A stretch of 33,804 nucleotides of DNA from Escherichia phage 899, in the sequence record PV533660.1; one strand, written 5' to 3'. Made by a program: the position numbers and the translations under genes. The notes below the pieces were generated by a model that ran no database searches, had not been told where the DNA came from, and saw only the letters and a list, made by a program, of their open reading frames with translations. Of this stretch, positions 33,285 to 33,804 are shown piece after piece (positions within the stretch are counted from its first letter, which is position 1; each line of letters starts with the position of its first letter).

Positions 33285-33697
33285 TGATTGTGCTGGTCGT
33301 GTTGTTATCGCTGGCGGTGGCGGGTCTGTTTCTGGCGAAGCATAAAAACGCCAGCCTGCGCACCTCACTGGACAGGGCAAACAACGTAGCCAGCGAGCAG
33401 CAGGCGACCATCACCATGCTGAAAAATCAGCTTCATGTTGCGCTCACCAGGGCAGACAAAAACGAGCTGGCGCAGGTGGCACTGCGTCAGGAACTGGAAA
33501 ACGCCGCGAAGCGTGAAGCTCAGCGCGAGAAAACCATCACGAGATTACTCAATGAAAACGAAGATTTCCGCCGCTGGTACGGCGCTGACCTGCCTGATGC
33601 TGTGCGCCGGTTGCACCAGCGCCCGGCCTGCGCAGACGCCAGTGATTGTCCACAACGCCTGCCCGAAAGTGAGCCTTTGCCCGATGCCGGGCAGTGA
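33272..33697 (+). CDS. lysB: LysB (Rz-like i-spanin)
   Basis: 141-aa ORF with N-terminal transmembrane segment and coiled-coil-like remainder. Confidence 0.8.
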   Translation: MSKLMIVLVVLLSLAVAGLFLAKHKNASLRTSLDRANNVASEQQATITMLKNQLHVALTRADKNELAQVALRQELENAAKREAQREKTITRLLNENEDFRRWYGADLPDAVRRLHQRPACADASDCPQRLPESEPLPDAGQ

Positions 33698-33804
33698 CCC
33701 GCAGACGAACGGCGATTTAAGTGCCGATATCCGGCAGCTTGAGAACGCGCTGGCACGCTGTGCCAGCCAGGTAAAAATGATTAAACACTGTCAGGATGAA
33801 AACG
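33552..33804 (+). CDS. lysC: LysC (Rz1-like o-spanin lipoprotein), 3'-truncated by window end
   Basis: ATG at 33552 in a different frame within lysB; translation MKTKISAAGTALTCLMLCAGCTSARP... has a signal peptide with Cys-containing lipobox-like segment; open to window end, so absent from the ORF track. Confidence 0.6.
   Translation, partial: MKTKISAAGTALTCLMLCAGCTSARPAQTPVIVHNACPKVSLCPMPGSDPQTNGDLSADIRQLENALARCASQVKMIKHCQDEN

Follow-up and report, generated by a model that had tools for sequence, protein, structure and literature searches.

The reading frame opened by the ATG at 33552-33554 on the plus strand is almost certainly lysC of a P2-like phage (Peduovirus), present in full and coding for a protein of 96 aa, the o-spanin (the outer-membrane lipoprotein subunit) in the two-component LysB/LysC spanin. 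Gene, family, architecture and even the exact protein sequence were known and named beforehand, and the value of the result is corrective: lysB and lysC are overlapped and not embedded, and lysC is complete once the sequence is read as a circle. As a textbook overlapped spanin, the case matters mostly for the quality of annotation. Throughout, the window is the whole 33,804-bp stretch of DNA that was analysed.

Reconstruction of lysC across the ends of the sequence

The lysC frame reads MKTKISAAGTALTCLMLCAGCTSARP... (ATGAAAACGAAGATTTCC... at the nucleotide start) and its ATG lies 280 nt into lysB, in the +1 frame relative to that gene. Translation of 33552..33803 gives MKTKISAAGTALTCLMLCAGCTSARPAQTPVIVHNACPKVSLCPMPGSDPQTNGDLSADIRQLENALARCASQVKMIKHCQDEN, that is, 84 codons without a stop, after which the frame runs off the end of the stretch. 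A preliminary description of this DNA had reported an ATG at 33552, out of frame in lysB, that opens a frame to the end, and had remarked on the absence of this frame from the list of open reading frames; both observations are confirmed, and the frame is missing from the list because it runs off the window end. The same description regarded the gene as truncated by the window end. This is correct insofar as the frame does run off the end, but the missing portion, which comprises 12 codons and the stop, is present at 1..38 of the same sequence, the opening point lying 38 bases before the stop codon. Read circularly, the complete lysC gene is 33552..33804 joined to 1..38, with a length of 291 nt and 96 codons for amino acids, and the sequence across the junction (G / AT GCT CAA ACC CGA CAG CCT GCG CAG GGC GCT GAC TGA, the slash marking the junction) adds DAQTRQPAQGAD and the stop. 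The 3' part overlaps the start of the tail gene R out of frame. The parts of lysC and the two genes that it overlaps are as follows.

33272..33697, plus strand: lysB, the i-spanin partner, 141 aa; the last 146 nt are common with lysC
33552..33804, plus strand: lysC 5' part, codons 1-84 and the first base of codon 85
33552..33611, plus strand: predicted signal peptide of LysC, codons 1-20
33612..33614, plus strand: codon of the predicted lipidated Cys21
1..38, plus strand: lysC 3' part, comprising the last two bases of codon 85, codons 86-96 (...DAQTRQPAQGAD) and, at 36-38, the TGA stop
1..468, plus strand: tail completion gene R, with its ATG at position 1; the first 38 nt overlap the end of lysC

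The last 120 and the first 120 bases of the stretch are contiguous in Yersinia phage GMG73 (OP880301.3). The 605 bases that were searched are 100% identical to this phage, and 3,605 bp of OP880301.3 recur exactly in the circularised sequence. That record, which is unannotated and marked 'UNVERIFIED', is also 33,804 bp long and carries the match at a different coordinate. By local BLAST, the whole stretch is collinear with P2 (NC_001895) but rotated: position 1 corresponds to P2 8455, the ATG of R, with 1..915 aligning to P2 8455..9369 (R of P2 being 8455..8922), and position 25349 corresponds to P2 position 1, cosL, the P2 cosL sequence GGCGAGGCGGGGAAAGCAC being found at 25349. The 33,804-bp stretch is a complete Peduovirus (P2-like) genome whose linear form begins at the ATG of R and not at cos, and the apparent truncation of lysC is a product of linearising a circular or cos-ended genome. 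An exact-sequence look-up found the 96-aa LysC in NCBI, where it is listed for E. coli assemblies (e.g. MBV1794336.1) under the name 'Rz1-like lysis system protein LysC'; because this identical protein was already in NCBI, the reconstruction across the ends is independently validated. A whole, circularly permuted phage genome of this kind should be read across its ends before any gene is called truncated, and features near either end of the 33,804-bp sequence are to be read circularly.

Membership in the P2 LysC family

LysC is identical to P2 LysC (NP_757382.1) at 90 of 96 positions (94%) in a gap-free alignment, and the C-terminal 12 residues, which are those contributed by the other end of the sequence, are all identical. 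With residues 5-88 aligned, it reaches 123.8 bits (curated cut-off 27) on the NCBIfam model NF038368 (P2_Rz1, an equivalog named 'Rz1-like lysis system protein LysC'), and with residues 16-84 aligned it reaches 62.9 bits on the Pfam model PF23793 (LysC), the cut-off of which is also 27. LysC also matches PHROGs 456 and 952, both described as 'Rz-like spanin'. In tblastn searches the frame was found to be kept in 270 phage records at identities from 100% to about 35%, these being Peduoviridae of Escherichia, Yersinia, Salmonella, Klebsiella, Burkholderia and Pseudomonas (phiCTX) and a Halomonas phage. Residue conservation was judged in 10 homologues with 94-34% identity, in which the residues M1, G9, L15, C21, C37, C43, N53, G54, L56, C70 and V74 never vary; LysC has four periplasmic cysteines, of which C37, C43 and C70 belong to this invariant set and C80 is present in nine of the 10 sequences.

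Besides the scores above the curated cut-offs, membership in the P2 LysC family was judged by gene context and gene layout. The cognate i-spanin gene lysB lies upstream within a holin/endolysin cassette, and lysC starts in the +1 frame inside lysB, extends past the lysB stop and ends in R. The preliminary description had proposed that lysC is the Rz1-like outer-membrane spanin partner of lysB and had suggested alignment with P2 LysC and extension beyond the end as checks. The matches to NF038368 and PF23793, the identity to P2 LysC over all 96 aa and the exact match in NCBI bear out this proposal, and neither of the two outcomes that were to speak against it, an immediate stop or a lack of similarity to Rz1-like proteins, was encountered.

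Architecture of lysB/lysC and the lysis cassette

The first 146 nt of lysC are shared with lysB, 145 nt lie beyond lysB and the last 38 nt lie inside R, where the overlap is in yet another frame; the segment coding for LysC only is 107 nt long (33698..33804). Two-component spanins have been classed by layout, with lysB/lysC of P2 as the prototype of the 'overlapped' class and lambda Rz/Rz1 as the prototype of the 'embedded' class (PMC6139136; PMC3091744; PMC3556154), and P2 is listed as an experimentally tested overlapped two-component spanin (PMC6139136). The lysB/lysC pair analysed here is of the 'overlapped' and not of the 'embedded' architecture. The earlier view of lysC as a gene embedded, or nested, in lysB does not hold, since only 146 of its 291 nt are inside lysB. 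Similarly, the lambda Rz1 family is characterised by an o-spanin gene that lies entirely inside the i-spanin gene, and lysC passes the lysB stop (33697) by 145 nt. P2, PSP3, phiCTX, the Burkholderia phages Musica and PhiBP82.2, Cartapus and others have this overlapped layout too, whether already annotated or recoverable.

LysB scores 172.4 bits on TIGR03495 (phage_LysB; cut-off 92.75) and is 95% identical to P2 LysB. By hydropathy, residues 4-22 form an N-terminal transmembrane segment, as expected of a type II inner-membrane protein. Near the C-terminus lie Cys120 and Cys126. The genes upstream of lysB complete the lysis cassette.

32066..32347, plus strand: holin Y (PF04550 Phage_holin_3_2, 143.6 bits; PHROG holin)
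32347..32844, plus strand: endolysin K (PHROG endolysin)
32859..33284, plus strand: lysA (PHROG lysA-type)

The order of the cassette (holin Y, endolysin K, lysA, lysB, lysC) is that of P2, with lysC at the cassette end.

Signal peptide and lipobox

The N-terminus of LysC has the composition of a lipoprotein signal, with a basic n-region (K2 and K4), an uncharged, hydrophobic stretch at residues 5-20 (mean Kyte-Doolittle hydropathy +1.69) and a cysteine that falls within positions 15-35 and follows a small residue (A19-G20-C21, then T22-S23). Thr occupies position +2 of the predicted mature N-terminus, C-T-S; as there is no Asp at +2, sorting to the outer membrane is expected, and the conserved periplasmic cysteines accompany this sorting signal.

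The signal peptide with a Cys-containing, lipobox-like segment that had been described earlier is upheld in part: LysC matches a relaxed lipoprotein-signal pattern and Cys21 is invariant, but neither the strict lipobox [LVI][ASTVI][GAS]C nor the core of PROSITE PS51257 matches LysC, in which L-C-A-G precedes Cys21. The strict patterns fail because position -3 is Cys18. We considered whether this failure speaks against a lipoprotein and rejected the argument, given that P2 LysC fails PROSITE too and that Cys21 is invariant. For P2 LysC, Table S1 of Kongari 2018 gives the lipobox 'LCAG', a mature start CTS, four periplasmic cysteines, LipoP cleavage at 20 and 17 and 'No hit by Prosite' (PMC6139136). 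The non-canonical lipobox is a property of the P2 clade and no ground for excluding membership. Because more distant homologues carry canonical lipoboxes at the aligned position, where they read LSGC, LAGC or LCAC, we infer by homology that Cys21 would be the lipidated residue.

Applied genome-wide to 961 start sites, the relaxed pattern matched lysC and two antisense ORFs (minus strand, near 29295 and 16118), compared with a mean of 0.07 matches in mononucleotide shuffles, a weak control, as long ORFs are fewer after shuffling. The antisense ORFs have the N-termini ...SALSVTSC... and ...GFAFGC..., the one near 29295 lies in a region collinear with the P2 O gene, and both matches look like chance. 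Taken alone, the lipobox-like motif is suggestive and not decisive, and it is weak evidence in this genome.

Start codon of lysC and coding evidence

In six of 11 genomes (this genome and 10 homologues), namely those of PSP3, PHB48, PhiBP82.2, Cartapus, phiCTX and a Klebsiella phage, the conserved lysC start is preceded by an in-frame stop at a distance of 1-4 codons. These upstream stops fix the lysC start at the MKTK position, 33552. A weak, putative ribosome-binding sequence precedes the ATG.

33541..33545, plus strand: Shine-Dalgarno-like GAGAT, weak, upstream of the lysC ATG

In the upstream sequences that were compared, GAGAT is found here and in phage P37 and GAGGT elsewhere. GAGAT is weaker than the GAGGT that P2 has at the same place, and which is marked as the P2 lysC SD in Table S1 of Kongari 2018 (PMC6139136).

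An alternative start would be Met45 (ATG 33684), in which case the true product would be a short protein of 52 aa and the signal-peptide-like stretch would be left untranslated. CDSs of 147-159 nt are annotated at the same position in NC_070905, KR073661, MZ420230, NC_049390, NC_073747, NC_028896, ON782130 and NC_049452, but these short calls fit the known bias of gene callers against overlapping genes, by which 64 o-spanins were given a wrong start and 196 were left unidentified (PMC6139136). Moreover, residues 1-44 are conserved in distant homologues, including the invariant G9, L15, C21, C37 and C43, the two HMM alignments begin upstream of Met45, at residue 5 (NF038368) and residue 16 (PF23793), and the curated P2 record as well as the CPT-annotated phage Musica carry the long form. 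A 52-aa product from Met45 would have no export signal. We therefore regard a start at Met45 as very improbable.

Alternatively, translation could start upstream of 33552, at ATG 33435 or GTG 33513, to give a protein of 135 or 109 aa with an internal hydrophobic segment and no cleavable lipoprotein signal. The lysC frame is open from 33423 and contains ATG 33435, TTG 33438 and GTG 33513, the same upstream stretch is open in P2, and an upstream lysC start is annotated in a Halomonas phage record. Against this, the extension is not conserved, because in-frame stops precede the conserved start in the six genomes listed above, and the HMM alignments begin at residues 5 and 16 of the form that starts at 33552. 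The residues upstream of 33552 are an alternative-frame reading of conserved lysB codons. Given these data we see very little chance that an upstream start is used, and favor the start at 33552.

Alternative-frame ORFs are common in this G+C-rich genome, with antisense examples of 205 aa and 199 aa, and an open alternative frame alone is not significant because so many long ones are present. Nevertheless, it is scarcely conceivable that lysC is a frame that stands open by chance within and beyond lysB, resembles a lipoprotein gene fortuitously in its lipobox-like motif and yields no protein. These ORFs and the two antisense matches to the relaxed pattern lend this reading some color, but the HMM scores exceed the curated cut-offs by factors of 4.6 (NCBIfam) and 2.3 (Pfam), the frame and the conserved cysteines are preserved down to 34% identity in other genera, and the lysC-only codons 50-96 differ from P2 by no amino-acid change and one synonymous change while lysB overall has seven amino-acid changes. 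HMM matches this far above the cut-offs, together with preservation of the frame in 270 phage records, place the lysC frame beyond chance.

In GenBank/RefSeq records of Peduovirus phages, lysC is often given as a 48-52-aa fragment that starts from an internal Met and is devoid of the signal peptide. It is omitted altogether in the records of P37, L-413C, Cartapus and vB_YenM_06.16-2, and in one Halomonas phage record the frame is labelled 'LolB'. The old P2 label 'regulation of lysis' is compatible with a spanin role and is no alternative to it.

Comparison with P2 LysC and other spanins

The gene shares with P2 lysC its length of 291 nt, a lysB of 426 nt, the +1 start and the overlaps of 146 nt with lysB and 38 nt with R, and the protein shares the LCAG/C lipobox (the slash marking the cleavage site), the CTS mature N-terminus and the four periplasmic cysteines. 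It differs from P2 LysC by the six substitutions R2K, F6S, V11A, P25R, P28Q and P34H, all in the part that overlaps lysB, and five of the six are synonymous in lysB. This pattern fits a constrained C-terminal functional domain and a more tolerant signal peptide and Pro-rich linker.

The substitutions P25R, P28Q and P34H (33624..33653) remove prolines from the Pro-rich N-terminal stretch, so that mature LysC has seven prolines here and 10 in P2. Among the nine relatives sampled, residues 25 and 34 are polymorphic in natural Peduovirus genomes. Q28 was found only in this phage among 10 sampled; the identical protein is nonetheless present in E. coli assemblies. We considered the proline differences at 25, 28 and 34 as a possible peculiarity of this phage and rejected this idea, since 25 and 34 prove to be sites of ordinary polymorphism and E. 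coli assemblies encode the very same protein. P2 laboratory mutants at the first two prolines (P25 and P26) reportedly change the timing of lysis (PMC3556154). It is conceivable, if unlikely, that the R25/Q28/H34 allele together with the weakened SD could be a lysis-timing variant in which this stretch tunes spanin activity to hosts (e.g. Yersinia pestis vs E. coli). If true, the o-spanin would have a part in regulation as well as in membrane fusion.

Like lambda Rz1, LysC is a small, proline-rich protein with periplasmic cysteine(s), encoded in the +1 frame of the i-spanin gene and the last gene product of the lysis cassette, and by its predicted role it would likewise be an outer-membrane lipoprotein (PMC6139136; PMC3091744). 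The two differ in that Rz1 is encoded wholly inside Rz, whereas lysC runs 145 nt past lysB, and in that Rz1 has one periplasmic cysteine (Cys29), whereas LysC has four, is longer (76 aa in the mature form) and has a conserved non-proline C-terminal half. In Pfam and NCBIfam scans at E <= 0.01, LysC matched only LysC models and none of the lambda Rz1-type; because the Pfam scan returned PF23793 alone, we detect no sequence-family relation between LysC and lambda Rz1.

[quoted passage not shown] PseT.3/PseT.2 differ from lysB/lysC in being separated, non-overlapping genes, and gp11 differs in being a unimolecular spanin, a single protein with a lipobox and a C-terminal TMD. No similarity of LysC to T4 PseT.2 or T1 gp11 was found.

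A hairpin in the lysC-only segment

A G+C-rich hairpin lies in the only stretch in which lysC is the sole reading frame.

33749..33767, plus strand: hairpin with an 8-bp stem, GCTGGCAC-GCT-GTGCCAGC

With its flanks the hairpin folds at -16.4 kcal/mol (z = -1.96), and it encodes the conserved LARCAS segment, which includes Cys70. It is positionally equivalent to the P2 'putative transcription attenuator; O operon' (P2 8399..8417). A terminator at 33749..33767 was considered and rejected, as a consensus terminator scan did not flag the site and no U-run follows the hairpin; we retain it as the homologue of the putative attenuator of P2.

Proposed function of LysB/LysC in lysis

According to Markov et al. 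in 2004, lysB and lysC of P2 reportedly complement lambda Rz/Rz1 null mutants. By analogy, we suggest that the LysC precursor is exported, that Cys21 would be lipidated and that the precursor would be cleaved by signal peptidase II. The 76-aa mature LysC would then be sorted to the inner leaflet of the outer membrane, +2 not being Asp, while LysB would be anchored in the inner membrane via its N-terminal TMD. Binding of LysC to the periplasmic end of LysB would generate a bridge threaded through the peptidoglycan mesh, and at lysis the LysB/LysC spanin would break the outer membrane. The four conserved cysteines of LysC and C120/C126 of LysB would fit the disulfide-linked homodimers described for other spanins. 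This mechanism is modelled on spanin biology, that is, on lambda Rz/Rz1 and on the P2 complementation work as summarised in PMC6139136, and the experimental basis for lipidation, outer-membrane location, LysB binding and outer-membrane disruption is the work on P2 and lambda (PMC6139136; PMC3091744; PMC3556154).

Other differences between this genome and P2

The genome departs from P2 at several further loci. At 22979..25183 the tin/old locus of P2 is replaced by different cargo, including a gene for a 183-aa Rv2179c-like 3'-5' exoribonuclease (PF16473, 192 bits) and a second gene for a 547-aa protein with a HipA-like kinase region and a HIRAN domain. The latter protein matches the PADLOC candidate-defence models PDC-M03A (residues 4-308) and PDC-M03B (residues 325-545) in one fused polypeptide. 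The Z/fun locus, in a known variable region of P2, is replaced at 6942..9653 by two genes, one for a 461-aa protein with no Pfam or PADLOC match and one for a DUF3800 protein of 348 aa (PF12686, 26.3 bits), which together may be a further pair of anti-phage cargo genes. P2 orf30 is absent (at about 916-979), and the C-terminal part of the tail-fibre gene H and its surroundings (4018-5934) are not alignable to P2. The int/C/cox immunity region (16827-18779) is only weakly similar to that of P2 (about 70% over 186 nt), a sign that immunity and the specificity of integration may differ.
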